From assembly GCA_947629375.1 (NCBI GenBank), contig CANRDN010000005.1:6968-70967 (forward strand): DNA of 64,000 bases, read 5' to 3'. The notes beneath the pieces were generated by a model. It was not told the DNA's origin and made no database searches. It was given only the letters and a program-made list of their open reading frames with translations. Source of the DNA: an uncultured Bacilli bacterium (GTDB lineage: Bacteria; Bacillota_I; Bacilli_A; RF39; UBA660). Of this stretch, positions 1 to 40,269 are shown piece after piece. How positions within the stretch are numbered: position 1 is the first letter of the stretch; each line of letters begins with the position of its first letter. Both the position numbers and the translations under genes were made by a program.

Positions 1-1112
1 GAGTACTTCAGGCAACAAAAAATTATTTCTTGAATTATAATTTTGAAGAACATAAAGAAACTGGTGTATTTGAAGCAGGATCTGCTGATATTACATTTGA
101 TTTTAGTGATTATTTCAATGGCCTTGCTGAAGTTGTTCTTGATGAGTGGGTTGGAGAAACCGAAACTACTCAGTACATGATTGATGAAAATGGAAATCTT
201 GTTGAAATTACTGAAAAGAATATGGAAGATGCCGAAGCAGCAATAGCAGCAGGAGATCCTTTAGCAGAAGTTACGGAAGGAGACCATACAACTACATTCG
301 ACGATGGCACAAAAATGAATGGTCATAGAAAGATAACAACACAATATGTTTGTCTTGATGGAGAACTAGGTTACACCGATGGAGTTGATCAATTTGTTGC
401 CCAAACAATTAAAGAAGAGGGTAAGATTATCACTCCTAAAGGACAAACATATGACTATGTAACACTTCAAGAATTTGATAATGATCAAGGAGTATTAAAA
501 CATAGTGAAGCTGATGTGACTGATGAAGATGGAAATGCAATTTATTCAAATGACAAAGATAGATTAGGTTGGTATCAAAATTTCTATTGCTCTGATGTAA
601 GAGAGTATAGAGATGTAACAGAGTTGGGAAACGATGTTACCGTTACAATGTCAACAATATATGATGGCGATTTTACAAATTCATATTCATATTCATATCA
701 TAAAGATGATCCTTCCTGTGGAACATATCAAAGGGAAGATGGAGTTGTTTACACATATTATCGAGATGAAGAAGGAAAATTACATGAGACAGAATCTACT
801 CCTACGAAAAAGACAAATCCTGATGGTTCACCCGTCATGAGTGAACCTACTGATTCAATAATTGATGAAGGACAAAAACAAACTGTTATTGTAACAAATA
901 ATGTCACTGGAGAAAGAATTGAAATACCATATAATTCAGGATCAAATCTAGATCGTGCTAAGATAATGGAACAAATGGATTTAGCGAGACTATCTTGTGG
1001 ATATAATTCTGAGTACGATACAGGTAGAAGTGTTACATGGCTTCAAGAATCAGGTGAATTTACTCTTGAAAATGGAGGTCAAAGTTTCTCATTTGTAATT
1101 GAAAATAATTAA
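1..1112 (+). CDS. C-terminal portion of a larger protein (5' end lies outside the window). Acidic, Cys/Tyr-containing C-terminal domain; candidate polymorphic toxin domain
   Basis: The reading frame is open from position 3 with no upstream stop. The frame-predicted start at 30 is TTG. A small ORF follows immediately, with no recognisable enzyme motifs. Confidence 0.45.
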   Translation, partial: VLQATKNYFLNYNFEEHKETGVFEAGSADITFDFSDYFNGLAEVVLDEWVGETETTQYMIDENGNLVEITEKNMEDAEAAIAAGDPLAEVTEGDHTTTFDDGTKMNGHRKITTQYVCLDGELGYTDGVDQFVAQTIKEEGKIITPKGQTYDYVTLQEFDNDQGVLKHSEADVTDEDGNAIYSNDKDRLGWYQNFYCSDVREYRDVTELGNDVTVTMSTIYDGDFTNSYSYSYHKDDPSCGTYQREDGVVYTYYRDEEGKLHETESTPTKKTNPDGSPVMSEPTDSIIDEGQKQTVIVTNNVTGERIEIPYNSGSNLDRAKIMEQMDLARLSCGYNSEYDTGRSVTWLQESGEFTLENGGQSFSFVIENN

Positions 1113-1127
1113 TGAAGGAGATTTTTT

Positions 1128-1616
1128 ATGAATGTTGTATGTAAAAAAAATGCAGAGATAAGAGACGAAGAATTAAGTGTCCTTTATGATATAAGTTTTT
1201 CCAATAATTCTAATCAAGAAAAAATGATAAGTAAAGAAGATTGGATTGATTTGACTAAAAAAGACAATAATCTTTTGTGCTTTGAATTTTTTAATGAAGA
1301 AGAGTTCGTTGGTTATGTATTAATTTCTATGCTAGAAAATGAAAATTTCGTTTCTGCATTTGAAATAATGAAAAAATATCAAAGTGATGGTAAGACATTT
1401 AAAGAAATGATAAGAATGTTACTACCATATACTAATACAAAAAATATTTATACTGGTATTATTTTTAATGAGAACCACCATGCTCAAATTGCTTTTAAAA
1501 GTATTGGAGCAATTCCCGATAAAAATAAATATAAAGTTTCTTATGATAGATTAAATGAGTTTTTAGATAAAAATATAGTATTTAGTGACGAAATGAAACC
1601 TTTAGATAATAAATAA
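1128..1616 (+). CDS. small cytoplasmic hypothetical protein, candidate immunity protein (possible GNAT-like Q-x-x-F-K-S-I-G-A motif)
   Basis: 162-aa ORF starting 16 nt after the stop of the upstream toxin-like C-terminal domain. No signal peptide. The motif HHAQIAFKSIGA resembles GNAT motif A. Confidence 0.4.
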   Translation: MNVVCKKNAEIRDEELSVLYDISFSNNSNQEKMISKEDWIDLTKKDNNLLCFEFFNEEEFVGYVLISMLENENFVSAFEIMKKYQSDGKTFKEMIRMLLPYTNTKNIYTGIIFNENHHAQIAFKSIGAIPDKNKYKVSYDRLNEFLDKNIVFSDEMKPLDNK

Positions 1617-1632
1617 AAATTATAATAGAGAA

Positions 1633-1663
1633 GTGTTAAATATTTTTAATTTAACACTTTTTA
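1633..1663 (+). terminator. rho-independent terminator
   Basis: Hairpin GTGTTAAAT / ATTTAACAC followed by TTTTT, directly after the 1128..1616 ORF. Confidence 0.45.
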
Positions 1664-1723
1664 TTGTGTGAAAAAAAACATTGATGTAAAATTATATTAT
1701 AAGAGATATTAGGAGTGATAAAA

Positions 1724-2923
1724 ATGGCAATTACAAATGGTTTGTCTGATGATAAAATAACTGCTGTTGCTTTAGGTGATGGTAAAGATTATACAACTGT
1801 AAATATTGTTGCTCTCAATGATGTTATTTCTTCAATGAATAGTGCTTTGGAACTCTTTTTGACTACTTGTGATGGTGATGTAGCTTCTAATAATGAAAAC
1901 TTTATAACATTAAGTAATATAGAAGTAGATGGACCTAAAGCTTTGGCATCTGGATTTGATGATCAGCTTGAAGGAATTGCTACTAATATTCATTCCGTAA
2001 TAGGTTCACTAACAGAATATGTAAATCAAGTTGAAGCAAATGACAGTAGTTTAGGAGAAAAAATTCCTTTGCCACCAAAAAAGACAAGAACGACAGTTAC
2101 GGAAGAAGAACAAAAACAATTTAATGAAATACTTCCTCCAGAGACACAATATGATCCATCCCATGCTGAATTCTTTAAGACTATATCTCTTAATGATTTA
2201 AGTAATGTTTTATATGCTTTAACTTATTTTGCCGATGCCAATCAAATGACAGTTGAACAGTTACTTTTGAATGTTCAAAGTGGCGACAATTTAAAAGAAT
2301 TATTGTTATCTCAACCAAATATTTCTGATGAACTAAGATCATATCTAGAAAACACTCCATCAGATATTTTGCTAAAAGATCTACAAGTTTTATTGTACAA
2401 TCAAGCTTTGTCTAGCGAAATATTTAACTTTGATGATGAAACAACTTCTTTCTTAGAAAAATTTACCACAACAACTTTAACGCTTATGGATGGTAATCAA
2501 ACGGGAGAGGTTTCTATAGATGATGTATTTGGTAACTCGCAAGTATTAAAAGAGAAATTATATCGTTTGGAATATTATATGACTAATACATTTTCGGGTA
2601 TTGGAGAATATGATATTCAAAAAGTATTGTTAAATTTGTATGATTCTGGTGAAGCAACAGGTGGATTAACTCAAGTTAAATCGATGTTAGAAGGTACTGA
2701 AGATAAAGATATATTTGTGAATTATATTAGAACTGAAATTGATTCAATGGCAAAGAAAAATGGAGTTACTTATGAAGTATTACTAACAGATGAAAAGTAC
2801 CAACAGGATCTTATGACAATACCAATTAATTTAGATAAATTGTTATTGTATGGTGAAATAATGGCAAGAACTGATAATCCTAGCAAAATGTGGTTTACAA
2901 CAGAACAAGAAAAAAATGATTAG
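1724..2923 (+). CDS. hypothetical protein (400 aa), first gene of the WXG100-like module
   Basis: ATG at 1724 is preceded by AGGAGTGA; the ORF-track start at 1715 is GTG. No motif recognised. Confidence 0.5.
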   Translation: MAITNGLSDDKITAVALGDGKDYTTVNIVALNDVISSMNSALELFLTTCDGDVASNNENFITLSNIEVDGPKALASGFDDQLEGIATNIHSVIGSLTEYVNQVEANDSSLGEKIPLPPKKTRTTVTEEEQKQFNEILPPETQYDPSHAEFFKTISLNDLSNVLYALTYFADANQMTVEQLLLNVQSGDNLKELLLSQPNISDELRSYLENTPSDILLKDLQVLLYNQALSSEIFNFDDETTSFLEKFTTTTLTLMDGNQTGEVSIDDVFGNSQVLKEKLYRLEYYMTNTFSGIGEYDIQKVLLNLYDSGEATGGLTQVKSMLEGTEDKDIFVNYIRTEIDSMAKKNGVTYEVLLTDEKYQQDLMTIPINLDKLLLYGEIMARTDNPSKMWFTTEQEKND

Positions 2924-2935
2924 GGTGTGATTAAA

Positions 2936-3283
2936 ATGTCGAAAATAGTAAAAGTAAATTTTTCTCAATTAGCTGAAAGAGGAAAAAATCAAAAAGAACT
3001 TGCTGAAAAATTTGAAAAAGCAAGACAAGATTTTCAAACAATTGTTAATTCATTAAATGAGTGTTGGGAAGGAATAGATGCAACAGCATTTCTAAATAAT
3101 TGCAATAATTATTTAGAATATTTAAAAAATGACACATTGTACTTTGATACTTTAGGTGAGTACTTTACTACTTGTTCTCTTTCATATAATAAAGTTGTTC
3201 TTGAAAATAAAGAAAAAATAAATCGTTTGAATAATTTAATTGACCAAGATAATCAAGAACAACCAGGAGGGGTGTCATTATGA
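2936..3283 (+). CDS. WXG100-superfamily-like small helical protein
   Basis: About 115 aa with a central motif CWEGIDATAF that matches W-x-G-x-x-A-x-A-F. The stop overlaps the start of the next ORF (ATGA), indicating translational coupling. Confidence 0.5.
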   Translation: MSKIVKVNFSQLAERGKNQKELAEKFEKARQDFQTIVNSLNECWEGIDATAFLNNCNNYLEYLKNDTLYFDTLGEYFTTCSLSYNKVVLENKEKINRLNNLIDQDNQEQPGGVSL

Positions 3284-3627
3284 CTATGAAAATTGATACA
3301 GATGCCTTAACTGCAAAAATTACACAATTAAAAGAGCAACAGCGTATTATTGCCGAAGTTTTAGAAAAGTTTAAAGGTGACACATTGATAATGGATTCCT
3401 ATTGGTCTAGTAATACGGGTGATACAGTAAAAGAGAATTTACTCGAATATATGTCTGCCTTTGACATAATAAATAGACAAATAACAATCTATGTAACCTT
3501 TTTAGAAAGTGTTGTTAATGGATATGTAGATGAAGAAAATATGATAGCAAATCAAATTGAAATGGCAGCAAATGTCCCAATAGGGGTAAATGAAGTAAAG
3601 CAAAATAATGATATGCAGAATATGTAA
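3280..3627 (+). CDS. small helical protein, WXG100/Lap-like partner
   Basis: 115 aa. RBS AGGAGGGG at 3265-3272. Translationally coupled to the upstream WXG-like ORF. Contains YWSSNTGD ... SAF. Confidence 0.4.
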   Translation: MTMKIDTDALTAKITQLKEQQRIIAEVLEKFKGDTLIMDSYWSSNTGDTVKENLLEYMSAFDIINRQITIYVTFLESVVNGYVDEENMIANQIEMAANVPIGVNEVKQNNDMQNM

Positions 3628-3674
3628 GAGATTTTCTAATAGATAAATAGATTAAGCAATATCTAGGAGGTATT

Positions 3675-5918
3675 ATGGCACTTACAACATTAATAAAAAA
3701 TGAACAGCTTTTTAGAATAGAAAAAGAAGTTGGAGATTTTACATTTTCTTTAGAAACTTTTGGTGACACAATTGCAGGTTCTTTAAGTACATTTTCCAGT
3801 AGTATAAGTAAATCTATAGAAAGTCTTGGAAACGATAACTGGGATGATGAAGTAAAGGATCAAGTTGATGAAACAAAGACAAATATATCAAATGAAATCA
3901 CCAAAGCATCAAAGACTGCCGATTATATTAAGGCAGGTCAAGGACCAGCCGAAACATTAAAATCACTTGTAAAAAAGTATGTAACTGAATATAACAATTA
4001 CGAATGGGAAAAAAATAAATATGTTGTACAATATAGACAAGTTACAATAGATGATGGAGAAGAATCCAAAACAGTTGATGAAGAAACAGAAGAATATAAA
4101 GAACATATTTATAAATTACAGGCATATGCTAAAAGTGTTCGCGAATTAGAAACTGAATGTTTAAGAATATATAATGGTGTTAAGGAATATTTTGAAAGTT
4201 ATAATTTTGAAACCTGTGAAGGAACTATTGATCCAACTACACTGACAAGTGATTTTAATTTTGATGAAAAATTCAAAACATATTTTGATGAATTAATGGC
4301 TACTACACTTGGACAATCAGAAGAGACAAAAGAAGAAGATGATAACCCACCACTACCTGAAGGATTCTTAGATACTACATACGATGATGAAAATGAAGCA
4401 ATAGATGCATTGGTAGCTAGTGGATGGGATGATGAAAAAGCAAGAGCTTATGTTGAAAGTCACAAAGATGATGAACTCTCTTTTTATCCTAAACCACCGG
4501 AAGGATTTATTGGAGCAACATACGATAGTGAAGCAGAAGCTGTTGAAGCATTATTAGCGAATGACGAATGGAGTAGAGAAGAAGCAGAAGCCTATGTTAA
4601 AAAACATCTAGACAAAGATGATATTGGACTTTATCCTAAACCACCGGAAGGATTTATTGGAGGAACATATGATAATGAAGCAGAAGCTCTTGAAGCATTA
4701 TTAGCGAAAGATGAATGGAATAAAGACGAAGCAGAAGCCTATATTAAAAAGCATATAGACAAAGGTGATATTAGACTTTATCCTGATCCACCTGAAGGAT
4801 TTATTGGAGCAACATACGATAGTGAAGCAGAAGCTGTTGAAGCATTATTAGCGAATAATGAATGGAATGATGACGAAGCAGAAGCCTATATTAAAAAGCA
4901 TTTAGACAAAGGTGATATTAGACTTTATCCTGATCCACCAGAAGGATTTATTGGAGCAACATACGATAGTGAAGCAGAAGCTGTTGAAGCATTATTAGCG
5001 AATAATGAATGGAATGATGACGAAGCAAAAGCCTATGTTAAAAAACATCTAGACAAAGGTGACATTGAACTATACCCTTCTACTCCAGAAGGATTTAATG
5101 AAGTAACATATGATGATAAAGATGAAGCAATAGATGCATTAATAGCTAGTGGATGGGATGATAAAAAAGCAACAGCTTATGTTGAAAGTCACCAAGGAAA
5201 TGGAGTTAATATTTATCCTGATCCTCCAGAAGGATTTATTGGAGCAACATATGATACTAAAGATGAAGCAGTTGCAGTATTGACAGGTAAAGGATGGAAT
5301 GATGACGAAGCAAGGGCTTATGTTGATAAACACATAGAACAACAGGATATATCTATTACTCCACATCCTCAAGCTGGCCCTCCTCCAACTGGTTATGAAC
5401 CAGAAAGCACACCATCTGCTTCTGATTCTGGTCAAGGTGGTCAAACAGGTAATCCTGTGGCAGGAGATACTCCGTCACCAGACCCAGCATCAGATGAAAC
5501 TGGTTCACAAAATATGGAATGTTCTACACCTGGATATATTCCAGCAGGATGTCCAAGACCTATGACATGTTCGGCACCAAACGACAGCACACCATCTACA
5601 TCTGATTTTGGTCAAGGTGATCAAACAGGCAATCCTGTGGCAGGAGATACTCCGTCACCAGACCCAGCAACAGATGAAACTGGTTCACAATATATGGGAT
5701 GTTATCCACCTGGATATACTCCAGCAGGATGTCAAGCTCCTGGAAATACAGGGGATGAATCTCCAATCCCTCAAGATGAAGATTCTAATGACTTAATTCC
5801 TGGTAAATCTGCTAATCCAAGCAACTATAGTAGTGGTGGAGGTGGAGGTGGAAGCGGTATAGATCCTTTAACTTTAGTCAACTTAGAAGCTCAGGCAAGA
5901 TGGCGTAATAGATTTTGA
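3675..5918 (+). CDS. large repeat-containing protein (747 aa): helical N-terminal domain, seven ~49-aa repeats, two ~60-aa repeats, and a Gly/Pro/Ser-rich tail
   Basis: RBS AGGAGG upstream. The repeats are visible at both DNA and protein level (PPEGFIGATYDSEAEAVEALLANNEWNDDEAEAYIKKHLDKGDIRLYPD). The C-terminus is GGGGGGSGIDPLTLVNLEAQARWRNRF. Confidence 0.6.
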   Translation: MALTTLIKNEQLFRIEKEVGDFTFSLETFGDTIAGSLSTFSSSISKSIESLGNDNWDDEVKDQVDETKTNISNEITKASKTADYIKAGQGPAETLKSLVKKYVTEYNNYEWEKNKYVVQYRQVTIDDGEESKTVDEETEEYKEHIYKLQAYAKSVRELETECLRIYNGVKEYFESYNFETCEGTIDPTTLTSDFNFDEKFKTYFDELMATTLGQSEETKEEDDNPPLPEGFLDTTYDDENEAIDALVASGWDDEKARAYVESHKDDELSFYPKPPEGFIGATYDSEAEAVEALLANDEWSREEAEAYVKKHLDKDDIGLYPKPPEGFIGGTYDNEAEALEALLAKDEWNKDEAEAYIKKHIDKGDIRLYPDPPEGFIGATYDSEAEAVEALLANNEWNDDEAEAYIKKHLDKGDIRLYPDPPEGFIGATYDSEAEAVEALLANNEWNDDEAKAYVKKHLDKGDIELYPSTPEGFNEVTYDDKDEAIDALIASGWDDKKATAYVESHQGNGVNIYPDPPEGFIGATYDTKDEAVAVLTGKGWNDDEARAYVDKHIEQQDISITPHPQAGPPPTGYEPESTPSASDSGQGGQTGNPVAGDTPSPDPASDETGSQNMECSTPGYIPAGCPRPMTCSAPNDSTPSTSDFGQGDQTGNPVAGDTPSPDPATDETGSQYMGCYPPGYTPAGCQAPGNTGDESPIPQDEDSNDLIPGKSANPSNYSSGGGGGGSGIDPLTLVNLEAQARWRNRF
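4347..5346 (+). repeat. in-frame tandem repeat, about 147 bp x 7 (49-aa unit)
   Basis: Near-identical 147-bp units, for example 4786-4932 versus 4933-5079. The outer copies are more degenerate. Confidence 0.75.
5406..5738 (+). repeat. two 180-bp direct repeats (60-aa unit STPS.SD.GQG.QTGNPVAGDTPSPDPA.DETGSQ)
   Basis: Near-identical DNA copies beginning at about 5406 and about 5586. Confidence 0.7.
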
Positions 5919-6018
5919 TTTTAGAACTAAGTAGAACCATTATTTAACACTTTTTCTATTATTTACATATTTTAATAAATGGCGTATAATAAACTCATTC
6001 AAAGGAAGGAAGTATAAT

Positions 6019-7503
6019 ATGGAAAGAGAATTTACTGAACAAGAATTAGTAAGGCGTGAAAAGGCCAAAAATATTCGTGAAATGGGAATGGATCCTTTCG
6101 GACATAAATTTGAACGCGATTCATTTGCTGCGGATATAAAAGATAAATATAAAGATGTTCCACATGACGATTTTGAAAATATGACTGATACTGCTACTGT
6201 TGCTGGAAGAATTATGTTTATTCGAAAAATGGGTAAAGCATCTTTCTTTACAATAAACGATAAGACTGGAGATATCCAAATATATATATCTATAAATGAT
6301 GTCGGTGAAGAAAAATACGAATTGTTTAAGTCTGCTGATATTGGTGATATCGTTGGAGTTTCTGGTAAAGTTATGAAAACAAGAACAGGAGAAGTTACAA
6401 TTAAATGTTTAGAATATACGCATTTAGTTAAAGCTTTAAAACCACTACCTGAAAAGTTCCACGGTCTTACAGATATCGAAGAGCGTTATAGAAGACGCTA
6501 TGTCGATTTGATAATGAATGAAGACTCAAGACGTGTTGCCTTTATGCGTCCTAAGATTATTAGATGTATTCAAAACTTTATGGATAATAGAGGATTCACA
6601 GAAGTTGAAACACCAGTTTTAACTACACTTTTAACAGGTGCTAGTGCAAGACCTTTTGTAACTCATCATAATACTCAAGATATCGATATGTACTTAAGAA
6701 TTGCTCTAGAACTTCCTTTAAAAAGACTTTTAGTAGGTGGTATGGAAGCCGTTTACGAAATAGGAAGAGTATTTAGAAATGAAGGAATGGATCCAAAACA
6801 TAATCCGGAATTTACTTTGATGGAAGCATATCTTGCTTATAGTGACCTTGAAGGAATGATGGATATGACTGAAGCAATGTATACAACCATTGCTAAAGAT
6901 GTAGTAGGTAAAATGACTTACAACTGGTGTGGTAACGAAATAAACCTTGAAGGACCTTGGAAGAGAATTAGTATGACTGATGCTATAAAGGAAAAGACAG
7001 GAATAGACTTCAAGAAAGAAATGACTTTGGATGAAGCCTTAAAACTTTGTGAAGAGCATCACATTCCAGTAGAAGAACACCAAAAGAGTCTTGGTCATAT
7101 AATTAACTTATTCTTTGAAAAGTATGTTGAAGAAACACTTATTCAACCAACATTCTTATATGGGCATCCAGTAGAAATAAGTCCTTTAACTAAGAAGAAT
7201 AAAGATGATCCAAGATTTGTCGATAGATTTGAATTATTTATCGGCGGAAAAGAATTTGCTAATGCTTACACAGAATTAAATGATCCAACTGATCAATTAG
7301 AAAGATTTGAAGAACAATTAAAAGAAAGAGATAAAGGAAATGAAGAAGCAAATGATATCGATATGGACTTTATCGAAGCATTAGAGTATGGAATGCCTCC
7401 AGCAGGTGGAATAGGTTATGGAATCGATAGACTTGTGATGTTATTTACTGAACAAGAAACGATAAGAGAAGTAATATTATTCCCAACAATGAAACAAAAA
7501 TAG
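6019..7503 (+). CDS. lysS: lysine--tRNA ligase (class II)
   Basis: 494 aa with an OB-fold N-terminus and class II motifs. FRNEG and GGIGYGIDRLVML are canonical LysRS signatures. Confidence 0.95.
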   Translation: MEREFTEQELVRREKAKNIREMGMDPFGHKFERDSFAADIKDKYKDVPHDDFENMTDTATVAGRIMFIRKMGKASFFTINDKTGDIQIYISINDVGEEKYELFKSADIGDIVGVSGKVMKTRTGEVTIKCLEYTHLVKALKPLPEKFHGLTDIEERYRRRYVDLIMNEDSRRVAFMRPKIIRCIQNFMDNRGFTEVETPVLTTLLTGASARPFVTHHNTQDIDMYLRIALELPLKRLLVGGMEAVYEIGRVFRNEGMDPKHNPEFTLMEAYLAYSDLEGMMDMTEAMYTTIAKDVVGKMTYNWCGNEINLEGPWKRISMTDAIKEKTGIDFKKEMTLDEALKLCEEHHIPVEEHQKSLGHIINLFFEKYVEETLIQPTFLYGHPVEISPLTKKNKDDPRFVDRFELFIGGKEFANAYTELNDPTDQLERFEEQLKERDKGNEEANDIDMDFIEALEYGMPPAGGIGYGIDRLVMLFTEQETIREVILFPTMKQK

Positions 7504-7601
7504 AAAGTATGGTTTACATATTTTCTTTTTCTTTTTGCAAATTAAATTCAATAGAAGTTTAAAATGTGTTAAGATATTTCTATAATGTGAGGATGACTAT
7601 A

Positions 7602-8576
7602 ATGAGAAAAGTTTCTATTGTTTTATCTTTTGTAGGTGTATGCTTAATAGCATTCGGTATTTATTCGTATACTGATTCTAACAATGAAAATAAGGAAGAA
7701 GTTTCTTTTAATCCTGAAGTTCATAAAGATGTAACAGAAGAAGACAAAAAAAATATTTTAAACTATTTAAATGTCAAATATGGTGAAGGATTTAAAGTAG
7801 TTGAGCATACTACTAAATATTGTTTATCTAAAGAAGATGGTAATTATGTAGTCGATAAAACTTGTGAAAAAAAGCATATAGTAAATAATATCTATAAAGT
7901 GCAAGATAGTGATGATATAACATTTTATGTAAAGAATGTTACTTTTCCTAATGATGAAAACTACGAAGAATACTTTAATAACTCTTATTATGATAACTAT
8001 GTTACTTTTAATGTAACAAAAAAAGTTGAAGAATCACTTACTCCTTTATTTAAAGAATTAGGTGATGTTAAAGAAATAGAAATCTATGATGGAATAGGAG
8101 TAGAATATCCTCAGTTTGAAAAAGTAAACGATGATTATAAATATTATATAATGTTTTCTAATTTAAATAAAAATAGTCAAGATATTGTCAATAAAGATAT
8201 GGAAATAACTGATTATATAAATAGAATTTATACTTTGGATTATTCAAATAAAGTGAAATTATATGTTAAATATGATCTTGATATTAATTCTCAAAACTTT
8301 AAAGAAATTGTTAATAACTTAAAAAACGGTAATTTCCTTAATTTAAATTATGGATTAGAAGCAGATTCAATTATATTAGAGTTTAACAATAATATATATT
8401 TAAAATATAATCAGGGATTTACTTTTGAACTTTTAAAGTATGATAAAAATCTACTTGAAGAAGATGGAACTTTAGTATATGATAAAAAAATAACTTTGGA
8501 TTTTTCTGATACAGAAGAAGGTAGTATTTTCTTTGATGATTTTATGAATCTTGAAAGTATAGATCTTAAGTTATAA
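7602..8576 (+). CDS. membrane-anchored hypothetical protein (N-terminal TM helix, Asn/Tyr-rich extracytoplasmic region)
   Basis: ATG at 7602 is preceded by GTGAGGATGA. The ORF-track start at 7566 uses an upstream alternative start. Confidence 0.45.
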   Translation: MRKVSIVLSFVGVCLIAFGIYSYTDSNNENKEEVSFNPEVHKDVTEEDKKNILNYLNVKYGEGFKVVEHTTKYCLSKEDGNYVVDKTCEKKHIVNNIYKVQDSDDITFYVKNVTFPNDENYEEYFNNSYYDNYVTFNVTKKVEESLTPLFKELGDVKEIEIYDGIGVEYPQFEKVNDDYKYYIMFSNLNKNSQDIVNKDMEITDYINRIYTLDYSNKVKLYVKYDLDINSQNFKEIVNNLKNGNFLNLNYGLEADSIILEFNNNIYLKYNQGFTFELLKYDKNLLEEDGTLVYDKKITLDFSDTEEGSIFFDDFMNLESIDLKL

Positions 8577-9249: not shown

Positions 9250-9300
9250 GATAATTGTATCTTGTATTTTTTTTTGATATAATTTCACTAGGTGATAAAA

Positions 9301-10770
9301 ATGAAGAAAGCTAAGAAAGATTACTTTTTTAATATATTTGTCTTGGTAATTTTTATATCTATCTCTCTTGTTTTAGCTTCTAAAGCACTTCAAAATGATA
9401 CTTTTTACACAATTAAAGTAGGAGAGTCAATATCTAAGTATGGTGTCGATATGAAGGAGCATTTTTCTTGGTTTTCTAATCTTACTTATACATATCCTCA
9501 CTGGCTTTATGACTTATTAATATATAATATCTATAATTTCTTTGGCTTTACTGGTATCTATATTTCAAATATTGTCTTTGGTTTTATTTTATTATCTTTA
9601 ATGTATTTTCTTACCAGTAATCTTACTAAAAATAAATATTTATCTTTTGTAGTTTCTTGTTTATCTTTCTTTACTTTAGGAGGATATATAACAGCAAGAG
9701 CTCAACTAATTTCTTATATGCTTTTACTTTTAATCTTGTATTCAATTAAGAAATTAAGAAATCAAAATAATCTTAGATATTATCTTTATATCTTTTTATG
9801 TTCTTTATTAATTGCCAATATTCATTTAGCAGTATGGCCGTTTATTTTTGTTTTATATCTACCTTTTTTAGTAAGTGATATAATTTATCTTTTAAATAAA
9901 AAGTATTCTTTTAAATTTTTAAAGAATTATAATATAACCCTTGAAGAAAGTTCTCTAAAGAAAATATTTATCTCTATTTTCCTTACCTTTTTAACAGGTT
10001 TTATGACTCCTAACTTTTTGGTACCATTTACTTATCTATACCGACAAGAAATAGGGGAATCTACAAGTTTTATTGTCGAACATTTACCAATCAATATAAG
10101 GTCATCACCTATAGTATTTGTCTTTTTATTACTATTTTTCTTACTTGTATGGAATAAGAAAACTAAAGTTAAATTAAGTGATTTATTTTTAATAAGTGGC
10201 TTGTTCTTAATGGCATTTATGGGTGAAAGAAATTATTCTTTGCTTGTCATTTTAAGTGTTTTTTCTCTTACAGAAGTTTTAAATGATTTTATTAATTTTG
10301 ATATGAGATTATTATTTAAGAATTATACTTTTACTATTCCTATAATGATTTTATTTATCTGTCTTGGTTTTTTAGTATTTTGTTACAATCAGAATATTGA
10401 TTTTTATAGTAAAAAAGAATATCCAATTGATGCTTCAAACTACGTTAAAAGTAACTTAGACTCTAAAAATATTAGATTATTTAATGAGTATGATTATGGA
10501 AGTTATCTAATCTTTCGTGATATCAAAGTCTTTATTGATTCAAGGTCTGATTTATACTTAAGAGAATTTAATAAAGATTGTGATGTGTTTGATGACTATA
10601 GAGTAATAAAAAATAATTACGATGAAATATTTAAGAAGTATGACATAACTCATGTACTAGTGGAAAATAAAGGTAACCTAAATCAAATATTAAAAGTTAA
10701 TAATAATTATTCTAATATTTATAGCGACAGTTATTTTACGATTTATCAAGTTTTGACAACTAGTAATTGA
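9301..10770 (+). CDS. polytopic membrane protein, possible GT-C-type glycosyltransferase (ArnT/PMT/YfhO-like topology)
   Basis: About 490 aa. More than 10 predicted TM helices in the N-terminal two-thirds, followed by a soluble C-terminal domain. Assignment is from architecture only. Confidence 0.4.
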   Translation: MKKAKKDYFFNIFVLVIFISISLVLASKALQNDTFYTIKVGESISKYGVDMKEHFSWFSNLTYTYPHWLYDLLIYNIYNFFGFTGIYISNIVFGFILLSLMYFLTSNLTKNKYLSFVVSCLSFFTLGGYITARAQLISYMLLLLILYSIKKLRNQNNLRYYLYIFLCSLLIANIHLAVWPFIFVLYLPFLVSDIIYLLNKKYSFKFLKNYNITLEESSLKKIFISIFLTFLTGFMTPNFLVPFTYLYRQEIGESTSFIVEHLPINIRSSPIVFVFLLLFFLLVWNKKTKVKLSDLFLISGLFLMAFMGERNYSLLVILSVFSLTEVLNDFINFDMRLLFKNYTFTIPIMILFICLGFLVFCYNQNIDFYSKKEYPIDASNYVKSNLDSKNIRLFNEYDYGSYLIFRDIKVFIDSRSDLYLREFNKDCDVFDDYRVIKNNYDEIFKKYDITHVLVENKGNLNQILKVNNNYSNIYSDSYFTIYQVLTTSN

Positions 10771-17363: not shown

Positions 17364-18914
17364 ATGTCTAGGACAAAGAATAGTGTTAAAAACTTACTTA
17401 CAGCTATTATTGGACAAGGTATAGGATTCATTGTAAGTTTTATTGCTAGAATATTTTTCATAAGAACTCTTGGAAGAGAATATTTAGGACTTAATGGTCT
17501 TTTTACCAATATACTTACCATTCTTTCTCTTGCTGAACTAGGAGTAGGGGAAGCGATAACTTATAGTCTTTACAAGCCACTTGCCGAAAATGATTCTAAA
17601 AAATGTACGATGTTAATGCAGGTATATAAAAAAGTTTATAATGTAATTGGACTTGCTATATTGCTAATTGGAATAGCAGTAACTCCTTTTTTACCATTTA
17701 TAATAAAAGATATGCCTAATATTCCTAACATCAGTTTTATCTATATTTTATTTGTAATTAATACTTCTGTTTCTTACTTTTTCTCATATAAAAGAAACTT
17801 AATAATAGCGGATCAAAAAAGATATATTGCAACATTTATAAGATATCTTGCTCATATAATATTTACTTTCTTAGAAATAGTTTATTTAGTTCTATTTAGA
17901 GATTACATCGGTTACTTATTAATAATGATTGCGTCTACTTTAGCAGATAATGTTATGGTATCTATAAAAGCTGAAAAGATGTACCCATACTTAAAAAGTA
18001 AAGAGAAAATTCCTTTAGATAAAGAATCTAAAGAGAGTATTATTAAAAATACTAAAGCAATGATGATGCATAAAGTAGGGGGAGTTGTTGTAAGTTCTAC
18101 TGATAATATTTTACTTTCAAAATTTGTTTCTCTTGATGCTGTAGGACTTTATTCCAATTATTTCTTTGTTACCAATGCTTTAAATAGTGTAGCAGTCCAT
18201 ATCTTTAACTCTGTTACAGCAAGTGTCGGTAATATGGTAGTACTAGAAAATAAAGAAAAGCAATACTCGATATTTAGAGATATTTTCTTCTTAGACTTTT
18301 GGCTTTTCTGTTTTCTATCTGTATCTCTTTTATGTCTTTTTAATCCATTTATCGAATTGTGGGTCGGAAAAGAATATTTATTTGGTTTCGATATAGTTTG
18401 TATCATCGTTATTAACTTCTATCTAACAGGTATGAGAAGAGCTGTTCTAACCTTTAGGGAAGCGAGTGGACTATTCTATAAAGACAGATGGAAATCTGTT
18501 GCGGAAGCAGTTCTTAATTTAGGATCTTCTATTGTACTTGCAATTTACTTAGGAACTTTTGGAGTATTTTTAGGAACATTTATAAGTGCAGTAATGACTT
18601 GTATCTGGATTGAACCTTTAGTCCTTTATAAATATGGTTTTGAAAAGAAACTAAGAAATTACTTCTTTATCTATTTTAAATATTTATTTATAACTCTTAT
18701 ATGTGCTGTTGTTACTTATTACTTGTGTAGCTTTATTAACTTTGGAAGATTCGTTTCCTTCATTTTAAAAGGAATACTTTGTGTACTAATTCCAAATACT
18801 GTTGTGTTCTTATTATTTAGAAAATCAAATGAGTTCAATTACTTTAAAAGAATGATTAAAAATATCTTGAAGAAAATAAGAAAAAAGCAGGTGGTTAAAA
18901 ATGCAGAAGCGTAA
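17364..18914 (+). CDS. MOP-superfamily polysaccharide flippase (Wzx-like)
   Basis: 516 aa with about 14 TM helices and the typical oligosaccharide flippase N-terminus. Confidence 0.75.
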   Translation: MSRTKNSVKNLLTAIIGQGIGFIVSFIARIFFIRTLGREYLGLNGLFTNILTILSLAELGVGEAITYSLYKPLAENDSKKCTMLMQVYKKVYNVIGLAILLIGIAVTPFLPFIIKDMPNIPNISFIYILFVINTSVSYFFSYKRNLIIADQKRYIATFIRYLAHIIFTFLEIVYLVLFRDYIGYLLIMIASTLADNVMVSIKAEKMYPYLKSKEKIPLDKESKESIIKNTKAMMMHKVGGVVVSSTDNILLSKFVSLDAVGLYSNYFFVTNALNSVAVHIFNSVTASVGNMVVLENKEKQYSIFRDIFFLDFWLFCFLSVSLLCLFNPFIELWVGKEYLFGFDIVCIIVINFYLTGMRRAVLTFREASGLFYKDRWKSVAEAVLNLGSSIVLAIYLGTFGVFLGTFISAVMTCIWIEPLVLYKYGFEKKLRNYFFIYFKYLFITLICAVVTYYLCSFINFGRFVSFILKGILCVLIPNTVVFLLFRKSNEFNYFKRMIKNILKKIRKKQVVKNAEA

Positions 18915-35272: not shown

Positions 35273-35366
35273 AAAAGTAAAACATTGTGTAAAGGTACTT
35301 ACATCTTTTAAAGCATAAATAATAGCAAAATAATAAAATATGTTATACTCTAAATGGAGGTGTCTT

Positions 35367-36977
35367 ATGCTAACATATGATGAAATAATCAGTTTTTGTT
35401 CAAATTATAGAATTGAAAATGGAACAGTTATTGATAACAAAACAAATGAAAAAGTAACTGATGAAGACACTATTCTAAAAGTAAAATCTTCAGTCTTAAT
35501 TTTTAAAGAAGCCAGAAGTAGTTATCAAGAAGATATGGTTCAATTTGATCAAACAAGAAAATCAAAAGAAGATTATGTCAAAAAGACTATGGAAAAGTTT
35601 AGTGTAAACGATGAAGAAAACACCTTTGGAATAAACAAATTAATAAGAGCAATTATTTCGTCAAACGGACATTACGAAGAGTATATTTCTGGAAATGATT
35701 TACAAAATGGTAAATTTTCAATTCTAGTTGAACCAAAAAAAGATTATGGCCTTGCTTATTTGAGATTAAAATTTAGAGAAAAAGGACTTGATTTAGAATC
35801 CTTTAATATAAGTCAAGATTTAAGTGAGTTAAAACATAATGGTGTATCAAAAGTTATTATAGATTTTAAAGTAAAACAAAAAGAAAAAACTAACATAGAA
35901 GATAAAGAATCAATTTATAGACATCCTAAAGCTGATATTTTAAATGAACTTGAAAAGCAAAAAAACGATGCAAAACAGATGGGTGATGAGGTTGGTTACA
36001 ATTATGCTTTAAGAAATATAGAACGAATAGTAAGAGAAGAACCTGCCTATGTATCTGCTGAAGAATTTAATAAAATGAGTATTGAAAGTAAAAAAGCTTT
36101 TATTAAAGTTAAAATTAATGAAGCTAGAGTTCTTAGAAATAAAGCTGTCTTTGATTATTGGACTCAAAACTTAAGTAAATTAGAGCAAAGGGAATTAGAT
36201 AAAAGTGAACCAGTTCATAGTGAGCCTAATAAAGTTGGTGAGAAAGAAAATCCACCAATACCAGTTGTAGAAGTTGAGAAAAGAAAATATCAAATACCGG
36301 TTGTAGAAACTAATAGAGAAAAAGAACCTGTTCAATCAAATCCTGTAAGTCAAGTAACACCCAATGAAGAAAGAACTAAAAAAGAAAAACACAACTATAA
36401 ATATTACTTTGATGAAATGATGAAAGTGATACAAAGATATAATCCTGATAATGCAACAGCAGAAGAAAAAAAACAGGCAATTGGGGAAATTTACTATTAT
36501 ATGGGATATATGACATCAAGTTTAACAAATATGCACGAAATATTTGATTTGAATTTCCTAGTAATTAATGAACTATCAGATACTCCTTTTAAAATAAAAT
36601 TAAGAGATAGTATTTTAAAAGATATAATATGGCAAAAGAATAAAATAACTACAAATACTTACGAGAAAGAAGAAACAAAAGAATTGGATTCTAAGTTTTC
36701 TAGAGCTATGCAGGAATTACGATCTAAATTAAAAAAGATTCAACAATCTTATAAAAATATGTTACAAGATGGTTCAATCGATGAAGATGAATTAAATGTA
36801 CTACTTGGACAAATGAGTAGAATTGTAGAAGATAGTTATTCTTTGAAAAGATTTATTACTACCGATGAAGCCAAAGAAGATTTAAGAATAGTTATAAATG
36901 AATTAGAAGAACAAAAAGAAAAGATGTTAAGAGTACAAAGAGGAGTAGAAGATTTAAAGGGTGGATTAAGATATTAA
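35367..36977 (+). CDS. hypothetical cytoplasmic helical protein (536 aa); its C-terminal region is paralogous to 42577..43491
   Basis: ATG at 35367 after AATGGAGGTG. Shares YYF(D/E)xM..(I/V)...NP.NA...E.K.A and D(D/E)(D/E)L..L.GQ... with the 304-aa protein. Confidence 0.5.
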   Translation: MLTYDEIISFCSNYRIENGTVIDNKTNEKVTDEDTILKVKSSVLIFKEARSSYQEDMVQFDQTRKSKEDYVKKTMEKFSVNDEENTFGINKLIRAIISSNGHYEEYISGNDLQNGKFSILVEPKKDYGLAYLRLKFREKGLDLESFNISQDLSELKHNGVSKVIIDFKVKQKEKTNIEDKESIYRHPKADILNELEKQKNDAKQMGDEVGYNYALRNIERIVREEPAYVSAEEFNKMSIESKKAFIKVKINEARVLRNKAVFDYWTQNLSKLEQRELDKSEPVHSEPNKVGEKENPPIPVVEVEKRKYQIPVVETNREKEPVQSNPVSQVTPNEERTKKEKHNYKYYFDEMMKVIQRYNPDNATAEEKKQAIGEIYYYMGYMTSSLTNMHEIFDLNFLVINELSDTPFKIKLRDSILKDIIWQKNKITTNTYEKEETKELDSKFSRAMQELRSKLKKIQQSYKNMLQDGSIDEDELNVLLGQMSRIVEDSYSLKRFITTDEAKEDLRIVINELEEQKEKMLRVQRGVEDLKGGLRY

Positions 36978-38730: not shown

Positions 38731-40269
38731 ATGAATTTAATTTCATTATCATTTGTTCTTTTGTGTATTATTACTTTGATAATTTACTTTGTTATACCAA
38801 AGAAAATACAATGGATTGTTCTACTTATATCGAGTCTTGTTTTTCTATTCTACGATAATTTTAGTTTAGGTACATTTTTACAAGCCGGAGTAGTACTTTT
38901 AACTACATATACAATGGCTCGATTAATTGAAAAAAATCGTGATTCGAAGAAAGCAAAATATTTCTTAATTACTGGAATTTTAATTGTTTTAGGAGTTTTA
39001 CTCTACATTAAATATTCAAATATGTTTTTGAGTATGTTTAATAGTTTATTTGGAATTGTCGGATTAAACTTCAAATTTAAAATGATAAATACAGTTTCTT
39101 TAGTTGGTATTAGCTATTATTCTTTAATAATGATTAGTTATATGACAGATGTTTATAGAGGAACTTGTAAAGCTCAAAAAAATATTCTTAAGTGTGCTTT
39201 ATTTGTTTATTATTTCCCAATTTTAAATTCAGGACCATTTATTAGATATGGTGAACCGGGGGGGGTAGAGAACAATTTATATAATGGCCACAAGTTTAGT
39301 TATGAGCATATGTGTAGTGGACTAATTCGTATTGCGTGGGGTGTTTTTAAAGTTCTCGTAATATCTATACGACTTGGTTATTTTGTCGACACTGTCTTTT
39401 CGGATTTAAATGCATACCCTGGTATATTTACAATTATTGCTGTTTGCTTCTTCCCATTACAACTTTATACAAACTTCTCTGGATCAATTGATATTATTAT
39501 GGGTGTATCAGAAATAATGGGAATTGAATTACCTGAAAACTTCACGTCACCATTTTTCTCACGTACTATTACGGAGTTTTGGCGTAACTGGCATATTACT
39601 CTTGGATCTTGGTTAAAAGATTATGTATTTTATCCTTTACAATTATCTAGTGGTATTCAAAAACTTACTAAATTCTGCAAAAATCATTTTGGTAAAAAAG
39701 CCGGCAAAAAGATTCCAATGTTTTTATCAATGTTTATTATGTGGATTTTGATTGGAGCCTGGCACGGTGGTGCAGTTAAATTTATTATTGGTTCCGGTGT
39801 TCTTCAGTTCGTGTATATATTACTCGAAGATTTATTGACGCCTATCTCAGAAAAGTTAAATAAAAAACTTGGTATTAATACAGATACTTTTGGATATAGA
39901 TTATATCAAATGGTTCGAACATTCTTATTATTTTCTTTAGCAATGGTTTTCTTCCGTGCTGATAGTGTATCAAACGCAATTGAAATATTTAAAAATATGT
40001 TTGTATGGAATCCTTGGGTATTACTTGATAATGCTTCATTGTATAATGCAGGACTTGATTTATTAGATTTTCGTATTTTAATAATTTCTTTAGTTGTACT
40101 ATTTATTGTCGACTATTTAAAAAGAAAAATGAATGTACGCGAAAAATTATTTAGTCAAAATATTGTTTTTCGTTGGTTACTAATTTATGCTTTGTTATTT
40201 TCAATTATCATTTTTGGTTGCTACGGTCCTGGTTATGATGCTGCAGACTTTATATATCGTGGCTTTTAG
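38731..40269 (+). CDS. MBOAT-family membrane-bound O-acyltransferase (DltB/AlgI/PatA-like)
   Basis: 512 aa polytopic protein with a conserved His in a WRNWHITLGSWLKDY context, typical of MBOAT. Confidence 0.85.
   Translation: MNLISLSFVLLCIITLIIYFVIPKKIQWIVLLISSLVFLFYDNFSLGTFLQAGVVLLTTYTMARLIEKNRDSKKAKYFLITGILIVLGVLLYIKYSNMFLSMFNSLFGIVGLNFKFKMINTVSLVGISYYSLIMISYMTDVYRGTCKAQKNILKCALFVYYFPILNSGPFIRYGEPGGVENNLYNGHKFSYEHMCSGLIRIAWGVFKVLVISIRLGYFVDTVFSDLNAYPGIFTIIAVCFFPLQLYTNFSGSIDIIMGVSEIMGIELPENFTSPFFSRTITEFWRNWHITLGSWLKDYVFYPLQLSSGIQKLTKFCKNHFGKKAGKKIPMFLSMFIMWILIGAWHGGAVKFIIGSGVLQFVYILLEDLLTPISEKLNKKLGINTDTFGYRLYQMVRTFLLFSLAMVFFRADSVSNAIEIFKNMFVWNPWVLLDNASLYNAGLDLLDFRILIISLVVLFIVDYLKRKMNVREKLFSQNIVFRWLLIYALLFSIIIFGCYGPGYDAADFIYRGF

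Follow-up and report, generated by a model that had tools for sequence, protein, structure and literature searches.

We analysed a 64,000-nt stretch of DNA from an uncultured Bacilli bacterium (GenBank assembly GCA_947629375.1, contig CANRDN010000005.1, positions 6,968 to 70,967), hereafter the window, at whose left edge lies a module encoding two small WXG100-like proteins, here named WXG-a and WXG-b, a third protein, p400, with a length of ~400 amino acids (aa), and large proteins that share an N-terminal domain (the N-domain). The list of open reading frames (ORFs) of the window confirmed the sizes, spacing and order of all six left-edge ORFs given in the initial annotation, namely a truncated acidic ORF, a small ORF, a ~400-aa protein, two coupled proteins of ~115 aa and a 747-aa protein. 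The arrangement of the small ORF directly downstream of the truncated one was as described, and its distance was corrected from 16 to 15 nt. The WXG-a and WXG-b genes overlap by 4 nt, and the remaining gaps within each cassette measure 2-47 nt. The features of the module are listed below.

3..1112 (+): effector-like 530-aa protein, its C-terminal 369 aa, 5'-truncated by the window edge
1128..1616 (+): 162-aa partner protein, starting 15 nt after the truncated ORF
1715..2923 (+): p400, first gene of cassette B, 402 aa (399 aa if counted from the ATG called at 1724)
2927..3283 (+): WXG-a, 118 aa, with the W47-E-G49 motif at nt 3065-3073
3280..3627 (+): WXG-b, 115 aa, with a 4-nt overlap with WXG-a
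3675..5918 (+): 747-aa candidate cargo protein, in which seven repeats and a tail rich in Pro and Gly follow the N-domain
3675..4319 (+): N-domain of the 747-aa protein, aa 1-215, with Trp56 at nt 3840-3842
4356..5381 (+): seven tandem repeats of the 747-aa protein, aa 228-569
5382..5918 (+): Pro/Gly/Ser/Thr-rich tail of the 747-aa protein, aa 570-747
5962..5990 (+; 12683-12711 on contig L001): promoter-like site of lysS, TTTACA-17-TATAAT, 11 of 12 consensus matches, a consensus match only
6019-7503: lysS, beginning 100 nt past the 747-aa gene

An exact-protein look-up retrieved a public metagenome contig of the European Nucleotide Archive (ENA), L001, which equals the window with 0 mismatches across 13,627 nt and on which the module reaches ~2.8 kb left of the window edge. 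To the left of window position 1, this contig carries glmM, yebC and gpsA, followed by genes for proteins of 418, 120, 223 and 530 aa. The truncated window ORF is the C-terminus of the 530-aa gene (L001 6241-7833), the N-terminal 161 aa of which lie outside the window. Two tandem cassettes are therefore arranged between gpsA and lysS, cassette A encoding proteins of 418, 120, 223, 530 and 162 aa and cassette B encoding proteins of 402, 118, 115 and 747 aa. Comparison of the two by BLASTP gave 47% identity for the 418- and 402-aa proteins (E=6e-124), 73% for the WXG-a proteins of 120 and 118 aa, 72% for WXG-b (aa 1-102 of the 223-aa protein against the 115-aa protein), and 35% for the 530- and 747-aa proteins, restricted in the last case to aa ~50-229. 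One cassette has been duplicated in tandem, and the left-edge module represents the distal half of the pair. A hairpin resembling a terminator lies across the end of gpsA, and there is a strong promoter-like site ahead of lysS; both are consensus matches only, and the second of them marks the right border of the module. Every protein of the module is acidic, with net charges of -98 for the 747-aa and -60 for the 530-aa protein. A transmembrane segment or Sec signal peptide was found in none of them, so that export would need a non-Sec route. The source annotations hold no names for the module proteins. A phage, plasmid or defence origin was considered and rejected, as PADLOC and PHROGs gave only repeat-driven noise and a tblastn search against plasmids was empty.

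Judged by their sequences, both small-protein families are genuine WXG100 relatives, in line with the CWEGIDATAF motif that had been pointed out in the 118-aa protein. This motif is present in WXG-a as C46-W47-E48-G49-IDATAF, and C46, W47 and G49 are invariant across 7 loci. WXG-a matched the WXG100 profile PF06013 with E=6.7e-4 and 20.3 bits over profile positions 2-55 of 86, and TIGR03930 with E=1.5e-4. WXG-b matched PF06013 with E=7.9e-5 and 23.3 bits over profile positions 2-81 of 86, and it aligned end to end with NCBIfam NF035934 (ESAT6_2; E=1.1e-10, 41.6 bits). Both PF06013 scores lie below the gathering score of 27.3 bits; the profile was matched at E<=0.01 by nine of the ten small proteins from five lineages (best 1.4e-9), and the WXG-b orthologue of locus L014 (7472-7825) reached 37.6 bits, above the gathering score. 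Weak PPE matches were found in four of ten aligned small proteins, including the window and cassette-A copies of WXG-a. The WXG-b alignment has invariant Y41, W42, G47 and Y82. Window WXG-b carries W42-S-S in place of the W-x-G motif, which appears as W-[ST/I]-G in six orthologues, and it contains Y82-V-D-E-E86, an Asp or Glu standing four residues past Tyr82 in 5 of the 7 aligned sequences. The sizes (118 and 115 aa), the predicted helix-turn-helix and the W-x-G motif, for WXG-b that of its orthologues, are those expected of WXG100 proteins; an associated EssC/EccC-type ATPase, which also characterizes the family, was found neither in the window, nor in its flanks, nor in the related loci. 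The proposed affiliation with the Lap families was not borne out, since DUF3130 and DUF3958 gave no match of weight to the small proteins (best, DUF3958 with E=0.32). In the cassette-A type of WXG-b, the WXG100 domain continues into a C-terminal extension that varies, the protein having 223 aa in one strain (L001 5554-6225) and 274 aa in another (L005 3199-4023). This extension holds an 'LLENGW' motif and has no Pfam match; a WXG100 protein with a cargo of its own would be unusual.

The N-domain, of ~215 aa, is the only part that the 530- and 747-aa proteins share, with 35% identity over aa 53-229, and its hidden Markov model (HMM) matched the full 530-aa protein with E=7.9e-78. With aa 1-230 of the 747-aa protein as query, HMMER was run exhaustively against 1.84 billion cluster representatives and returned a family of 23 clusters, of which 14 had E<=1e-10; a word-index homology search had found no relatives, and the HMMER search was needed. 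The domain is N-terminal in all 23 clusters, mostly in proteins of about 450-940 aa, and no Pfam family was matched in this region in any of the 23 members. The AlphaFold2 (AF2) model built on the 23-sequence alignment has a mean predicted local distance difference test score (pLDDT) of 85.5 and a predicted template modelling score (pTM) of 0.73. It comprises helices at residues 10-20, 26-50, 58-87 and 89-113, a beta-hairpin at 120-126/131-137, and helices at 139-174 and 196-217. L37, W56, Y102, Y172 and F173 are invariant. The first inter-helix loop (residues 51-57) holds W56 within D-D-N-W-D-D, not L-x-G, and a stretch [IV]-x-G-x-x-x-P follows at a later turn (residues ~85-91). According to the published description, TelA's LXG domain (residues 1-224) has nine helices and two short antiparallel strands parting two sub-domains, each of which binds one Lap, and the leucine of its LxG motif, Leu41, lies in the first turn. 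The modelled N-domain is alike in size and in its order of helices, two central antiparallel strands and helices, and its hydrophobic W56 occupies, in the first turn, the place that Leu41 has in LXG. By size and layout, the model thus agrees with an LXG-like helical targeting domain. The best Foldseek matches of the N-domain were BAR-domain-like bundles, which were not significant. At the end of helix 139-174 (aa 172-177, nt 4188-4205), the invariant Y172-F173 is extended to F173-x-x-x-[D/N] in most aligned N-domains. This recalls the FxxxD motif reported for Lap1 proteins and may be coincidental.

The N-domain family carries at least five kinds of C-terminus. The one found in the 530-aa protein, which enters the window with the final ~43 residues of its N-domain ahead of the acidic '530-type' C-terminal region, was present in 14 family sequences (12 clusters and the L008 and L014 proteins) with 25-36% identity, and its invariant positions are G, D, R, L or E only, mostly Gly, Asp and Arg. 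The 530-aa protein gave a weak YD-repeat match (15.1 bits against a cutoff of 15.8), and weak dockerin-like matches were seen in its homologues. Another C-terminus, in protein P0020, is a HEFGH/ATLF-like metalloprotease domain, and the product of the next gene, of 193 aa, begins with a signal or anchor sequence. The C-terminal tail of P0022 is Gly-rich and amphipathic, and an unrelated 121-aa protein is encoded next to it; P0017 has a Pro/Thr-rich C-terminus. P0021 (940 aa) and the window 747-aa protein have helical or beta-alpha repeats and no partner gene, P0021 being directly followed by yebC. The orphan N-domain effector with the HEFGH metalloprotease and its 193-aa, signal-peptide-bearing partner are inserted, in a relative, between rseP and smc (L009 2199-4350; L016 13055-17376), two genes that are adjacent in the genome of the window.

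The initial annotation suggested that the truncated protein and the 162-aa ORF form a toxin-immunity-like pair, and this pairing proved to be conserved in four independent loci. A 162-aa homologue follows a 530-type effector (503-530 aa) in all four loci where the next gene is visible (L001-A, L006, L008 and L014), with family HMM E values from 2e-55 to 1.6e-100 and 39-42% identity to homologues, and it is absent after the other C-terminal types. A partner gene that changes along with the C-terminal type is the hallmark of effector-partner, or toxin-immunity, pairs. The 162-aa protein matched Acetyltransf_10 (E=0.004, 17.6 bits; cutoff 23.6), RimI (E=0.0064, 16.6 bits; cutoff 86.4) and the PDB RimI entry 9mto (E=0.027). 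These signals of the GNAT acetyltransferase superfamily cover the same motif-A region in three libraries and are all below cutoff. The motif A of the 162-aa protein, Q85-S-D-G88-K-T90, is degenerate at its last position with respect to the GNAT pattern Q/R-x-x-G-x-G/A, which leaves the protein short of GNAT membership. It is best described as a GNAT-like, cytoplasmic protein that may be either an immunity protein or a modifying enzyme of the 530-type effector.

The 747-aa protein, which was found in exact form on public contigs, has the features that were first noted for it: long repeats, a Pro/Gly-rich tail, no toxin domain, no following immunity gene, and lysS next. Tandem Repeats Finder detected two arrays in the gene, one of period 147 nt (5.7 copies, 4483-5312) and one of period 180 nt (1.8 copies, 5406-5733). 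The former corresponds to seven units of 47-49 aa with the consensus YPxPPEGFIGATYDSEAEAVEALLAxxxWxxxEAEAYVKKH. The tail repeats a 60-aa unit ~1.8 times, contains Cys residues, is rich in Gly (15%) and Pro (14%), and terminates in GGGGGGSGIDPLTLVNLEAQARWRNRF. The whole protein scored 24.8 bits against DUF5648 (PF18885; gathering score 25). Repeats 5-7 alone scored 25.1 bits, covering profile positions 15-133 of 134 in one stretch, and repeats 1-3 and 3-5 scored 17.4 and 13.8 bits, respectively. DUF5648 is the receptor-binding, glycan-recognising domain of the BSAP-2 and BSAP-3 toxins, an auxiliary domain in extracellular GH70 enzymes and a putative cell-wall-binding domain at the C-terminus of a GH25 endolysin, and it has so far been reported from extracellular proteins. 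The 747-aa repeats resemble these three-bladed beta-alpha propellers in their period of ~45-49 aa and in the end-to-end alignment of three repeats with the 134-position profile; both are C-terminal and non-catalytic, and the domains are extracellular in DUF5648 proteins. Unlike DUF5648, the repeats number seven and not three, and a fusion to a WXG-associated N-domain has not been described. Since a period of ~49 aa and three repeats per propeller fit DUF5648, the repeats suggest an exported glycan- or cell-wall-binding function. Neither a toxin domain nor a downstream partner gene was found for the 747-aa protein, and the lack of a partner gene makes it a probable non-toxic cargo. From these sequence features, the protein is most likely an exported, non-toxic glycan- or cell-wall-binding or surface protein. 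A match to DUF4597 (39.8 bits), which we take to be a eukaryotic family, was dismissed as a repeat or composition artefact, as no single stretch passes. Elsewhere in the window, genes of the FkbH-like (44885-46663), MBOAT (38731-40269) and Polysacc_synt (17364-18914) families indicate envelope glycopolymer modification, which could matter if glycans of the cell surface are what the 747-aa repeats bind.

The p400 family comprises 13 clusters among 5.8 billion proteins, none of them with a Pfam domain, and p400 itself had no match in Pfam or NCBIfam, Lap and LXG included. It precedes the WXG pair in all 11 loci with sequence ahead of the pair. In the AF2 model of p400 (pLDDT 67), a disordered linker rich in Pro, Thr and Lys joins a helical hairpin at the N-terminus (~aa 31-116) to a C-terminal domain that is all-alpha. 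No fold match was obtained with Foldseek against the PDB (E>1.8), and the sole match of the p400 profile to PDB sequences was a local one to designed armadillo repeats. On sequence evidence, p400 is the conserved first cassette gene of an orphan family and not an LXG effector. Between cassettes A and B, the N-terminal third of p400 is 19-44% identical and the C-terminal two-thirds about 50-64%. Given that the hairpin diverges like the effector N-domains (35%), whereas the WXG pair is 72-73% identical, its sequence suggests a cassette-specific partner of the effector.

Among species-representative genomes, the cassette was present only in RUG11250, a metagenome-assembled genome (MAG) of an uncultured rumen member of the Erysipelotrichaceae, and all remaining loci are on gut or rumen metagenome contigs. 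In scans of genome collections, the single 402-aa query retrieved nothing and the p400 alignment retrieved one MAG and three metagenome contigs; the sequences of the full N-domain alignment diverged too much to yield a pattern for such a scan. The order p400, WXG-a, WXG-b, N-domain protein and partner is kept in L001-A, L006, L008 and L014, and the WXG pair lies directly ahead of an N-domain gene in the window, L001-A, L005, L006, L008, L013 and L014. The p400/WXG-a/WXG-b triplet stands alone in L007, L011/L012 and L015, and orphan effectors occur in L009 and L010. In three lineages, a lone triplet follows gpsA and N-domain effectors lie upstream of yebC. The lone triplet in these three lineages marks p400, WXG-a and WXG-b as a conserved core, and the glmM-yebC-gpsA-lysS region is a hot spot with two insertion sites. 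In a pair of near-identical strains with gpsA 99% identical in protein and 97% in DNA, p400 is 76%, WXG-a 68% and WXG-b 82% identical, and the effector N-domain is of another type, with 33% identity to that of the 530-aa protein and 43% to that of the 747-aa protein. Loci engaged in competition or host interaction typically show such hypervariability. In L014, a complete cassette (161-5934, minus strand) lies beside divergent genes instead of after gpsA; these encode a 614-aa protein without a Pfam match, an 801-aa protein containing fn3 and a pilin-like (N_methyl) protein of 411 aa.

Three further window ORFs had no Pfam match at 1e-5: 7566-8576 (336 aa, with an N-terminal hydrophobic anchor), 9292-10770 (492 aa) and 35340-36977 (545 aa). 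In L007, L011 and L015, the 336-aa gene and the HlyIII gene after it are likewise found in synteny immediately past the module. The only Rfam family above its gathering score in the window is a full-length 6S RNA (RF00013, 61298-61472, plus strand, 56.5 bits).

Considering the gene content, the duplication and the modular C-termini, we favour, at a probability of roughly 60%, the reading that the locus is a divergent, lineage-specific substrate cassette of a type VII secretion system (T7SS), of WXG100/LXG-like kind and tandemly duplicated, in an uncultured bacterium of the Erysipelotrichaceae with low GC content. Under this reading, WXG-a and WXG-b would each bind one half of the N-domain, as Laps bind LXG, and the WXG pair and the N-domain would form an elongated helical bundle. 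For an EssC-type ATPase, encoded at another place in the genome, this bundle would be the signal for export, and the divergent N-terminal hairpin of p400 would probably be an adaptor, chaperone or co-substrate specific to its cassette. The cargo would be modular. The acidic C-terminal domain of the 530-aa protein would be paired with the 162-aa immunity protein or modifier, and the 747-aa protein, with putatively glycan-binding repeats and a Pro/Gly tail, would most likely be an exported binding or surface protein rather than a toxin. Garrett et al. (PMC11217815) describe candidate substrates of all T7SS subtypes as adjoining one or two small WXG100-related genes. The resemblance to LXG loci that the initial annotation had drawn holds for the gene order (PMC10801868, PMC11217815) and is not supported for LXG membership of the 747-, 530- and ~400-aa proteins. 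Its interpretation is thus supported in part: the locus is a modular effector cassette, WXG100-associated and LXG-like, that contains an unclassified p400 and an unclassified GNAT-like partner and does not pass as LXG or Lap by sequence.

Several observations weigh against this reading. The LXG profile PF04740 had no match at E<=1 in the 747-, 530-, 402- and 418-aa proteins and none at E<=0.01 in the 23 members of the N-domain family. The N-domain profile retrieved neither the LXG complex 8GMH nor any T7SS substrate from the PDB sequences, and the fold search with the N-domain did not retrieve 8GMH. Comparison of the N-domain, p400, WXG-a and WXG-b by hhalign gave no support for common ancestry. 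In the 530-type C-terminus, no recognisable toxin fold, catalytic signature or Pfam family was found, and a GNAT-like protein is unusual as an immunity protein. The DUF5648 similarity is borderline, reaching the threshold in one repeat block only. As for the machinery, no T7SS core gene or EssC-like ATPase was found in ~80 kb of contiguous chromosome (the window, 6.7 kb upstream and ~9 kb downstream), and no FtsK/SpoIIIE ATPase or other T7SS gene was found in the flanks (up to 10 kb) of the related loci L005-L015. All window ORFs are of at most 865 aa, the largest ones checked being housekeeping genes or without a Pfam match, and the sequences upstream and downstream of the window are made up of housekeeping genes. 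A literature search linking T7SS, WXG100, LXG or EssC to Erysipelotrichaceae, Erysipelotrichales or Erysipelotrichia found nothing relevant. T7SS substrate cassettes are often remote from the core locus, so that a local lack of machinery is not evidence of absence.

The unseen machinery is the main uncertainty of the favoured reading and one argument for an alternative in which the cassette proteins are not secretion substrates at all. In a lineage without T7SS, they could form an intracellular helical-bundle assembly with a membrane-shaping, cytoskeletal or regulatory role, or could leave the cell by an unknown export route. The empty ~80 kb and related flanks would fit such a role, as would the BAR-domain-like bundles that top the Foldseek matches of the N-domain, although not significantly, and the position of the triplet at a conserved housekeeping site after gpsA. 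We consider this unlikely. Substrate cassettes commonly lie far from the core locus, and the modular C-termini with co-varying partners, the HExxH protease with its signal-peptide partner and the hypervariability are hallmarks of exported polymorphic effectors. DUF5648 domains point the same way in having been reported so far in extracellular proteins, and elsewhere WXG100 proteins go together with EssC/EccC systems (PMC11217815). A related proposal, which we hold to be rather doubtful, is that of a self-contained WXG100 cargo system of unclassified parts (a W-loop targeting domain, a ~400-aa adaptor and a modifying GNAT-like partner). Such a system would feed an undescribed or very divergent T7SS subtype or be EssC-free, and its targeting domain would have been recruited to export non-toxic glycan-binding surface proteins, the 747-aa protein among them.

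Two other alternatives concern the cargo. The 747-aa protein could be a genuine toxin whose toxic module, for instance the Pro/Gly tail with its Cys residues or the 20-residue helix at the C-terminus, has escaped recognition, the immunity gene lying elsewhere or being needless if the target is non-bacterial. It has the same N-domain as members with toxin-like C-termini, the locus is hypervariable and the tail has no family assignment. However, ~340 aa of its C-terminal region are a regular DUF5648-like repeat and the remainder is of low complexity, and it lacks the partner gene that other C-terminal types have, as does the repeat-type P0021; a toxin seems rather improbable here. For the first pair only, the 162-aa protein could be an acyl- or acetyltransferase that modifies or activates the 530-type effector, comparable to the HlyC-type acyltransferases beside RTX toxins. 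The weak GNAT matches in the motif-A region from three libraries would agree with this, and so would the strong conservation of the partner (39-42%) together with an effector C-terminus that is also conserved (25-36%) and not hypervariable, the very acidic effector, and the homologues with Ca-binding dockerin-like loops. The GNAT matches, however, are all under the curated cutoffs, motif A is degenerate (Q-x-x-G-x-T), no HlyC-family match was found, and the slot directly after the effector is the classic position of an immunity gene. A modifying transferase appears quite unlikely.

T7SS effector biology is known almost wholly from Bacilli and Actinobacteria, and this compact, hypervariable cassette occurs in a gut and rumen lineage without cultured representatives or T7SS literature. 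Its targeting domain and ~400-aa partner are invisible to current HMMs (LXG, Lap and EspG-like). If the proposed mechanism is true, the N-domain would provide a new targeting-domain family for effector annotation in metagenomes, and one export signal would be fused either to toxin-like cargo with a partner or to glycan-binding repeats without one. It would also raise the question of whether the GNAT fold serves immunity or effector modification. Should EssC be missing from these genomes, the WXG100 proteins would here occur apart from a T7SS, which is rare.

With respect to known systems, the T7SSa sets of EsxB/EsxA and PE/PPE/Esp proteins share with the cassette a translationally coupled pair of non-identical WXG100 genes. 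The weak PPE matches of WXG-a, the ESAT-6-subfamily match and Y-x-x-x-[DE] of WXG-b, and the hairpin, Pro-rich linker and C-terminal domain of p400, reminiscent of the EspB/PPE layout, add to the likeness. Unlike T7SSa, the cassette belongs to a Bacillota host of the Erysipelotrichaceae and not an actinobacterium, its matches are sub-threshold, no EccC, EspG or mycosin lies nearby, and the p400 fold is unmatched.

The LXG/Lap toxins of T7SSb, such as TelA-LapA3-LapA4 (PDB 8GMH) and TelC-LapC1-LapC2 of S. intermedius, have in common with the cassette two small helix-turn-helix genes ahead of a large protein and, here according to the model, a helical region of the first ~200-220 residues broken by a short beta-hairpin. 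Variable C-termini, a small partner gene next, the lack of a Sec signal and a hydrophobic residue in the first turn are also shared, and LXG/Lap loci are likewise remote from the core machinery and hypervariable. The cassette differs from them in having no PF04740 or Lap-family match, the turn motif D-D-N-W-D-D and not L-x-G, small proteins of WXG100 type and not of DUF3130, DUF3958, DUF5344 or DUF5082, and an extra ~400-aa gene in first position. Furthermore, most members share one acidic C-terminus with a GNAT-like partner, and the 747-aa protein carries binding-type repeats and no toxin.

LXG-like T7SS substrates that profiles overlook are also on record, and S. aureus TspA is reportedly one that is missed by the LXG HMM. 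An LXG-like toxin of the Olsenella T7SSd locus escapes the LXG HMM and adjoins small WXG100-related genes (PMC11217815), and the C-terminal LXG-like domain of TslM is reported to do so too (PMC13560087). As far as these accounts describe them, such substrates lie at or are linked to a T7SS locus and some are secreted, whereas the cassette has no linked machinery and forms a separate sequence family of 23 clusters. What the two appear to share is a helical targeting domain that is known by structure and context and lies beside small WXG100-related genes.

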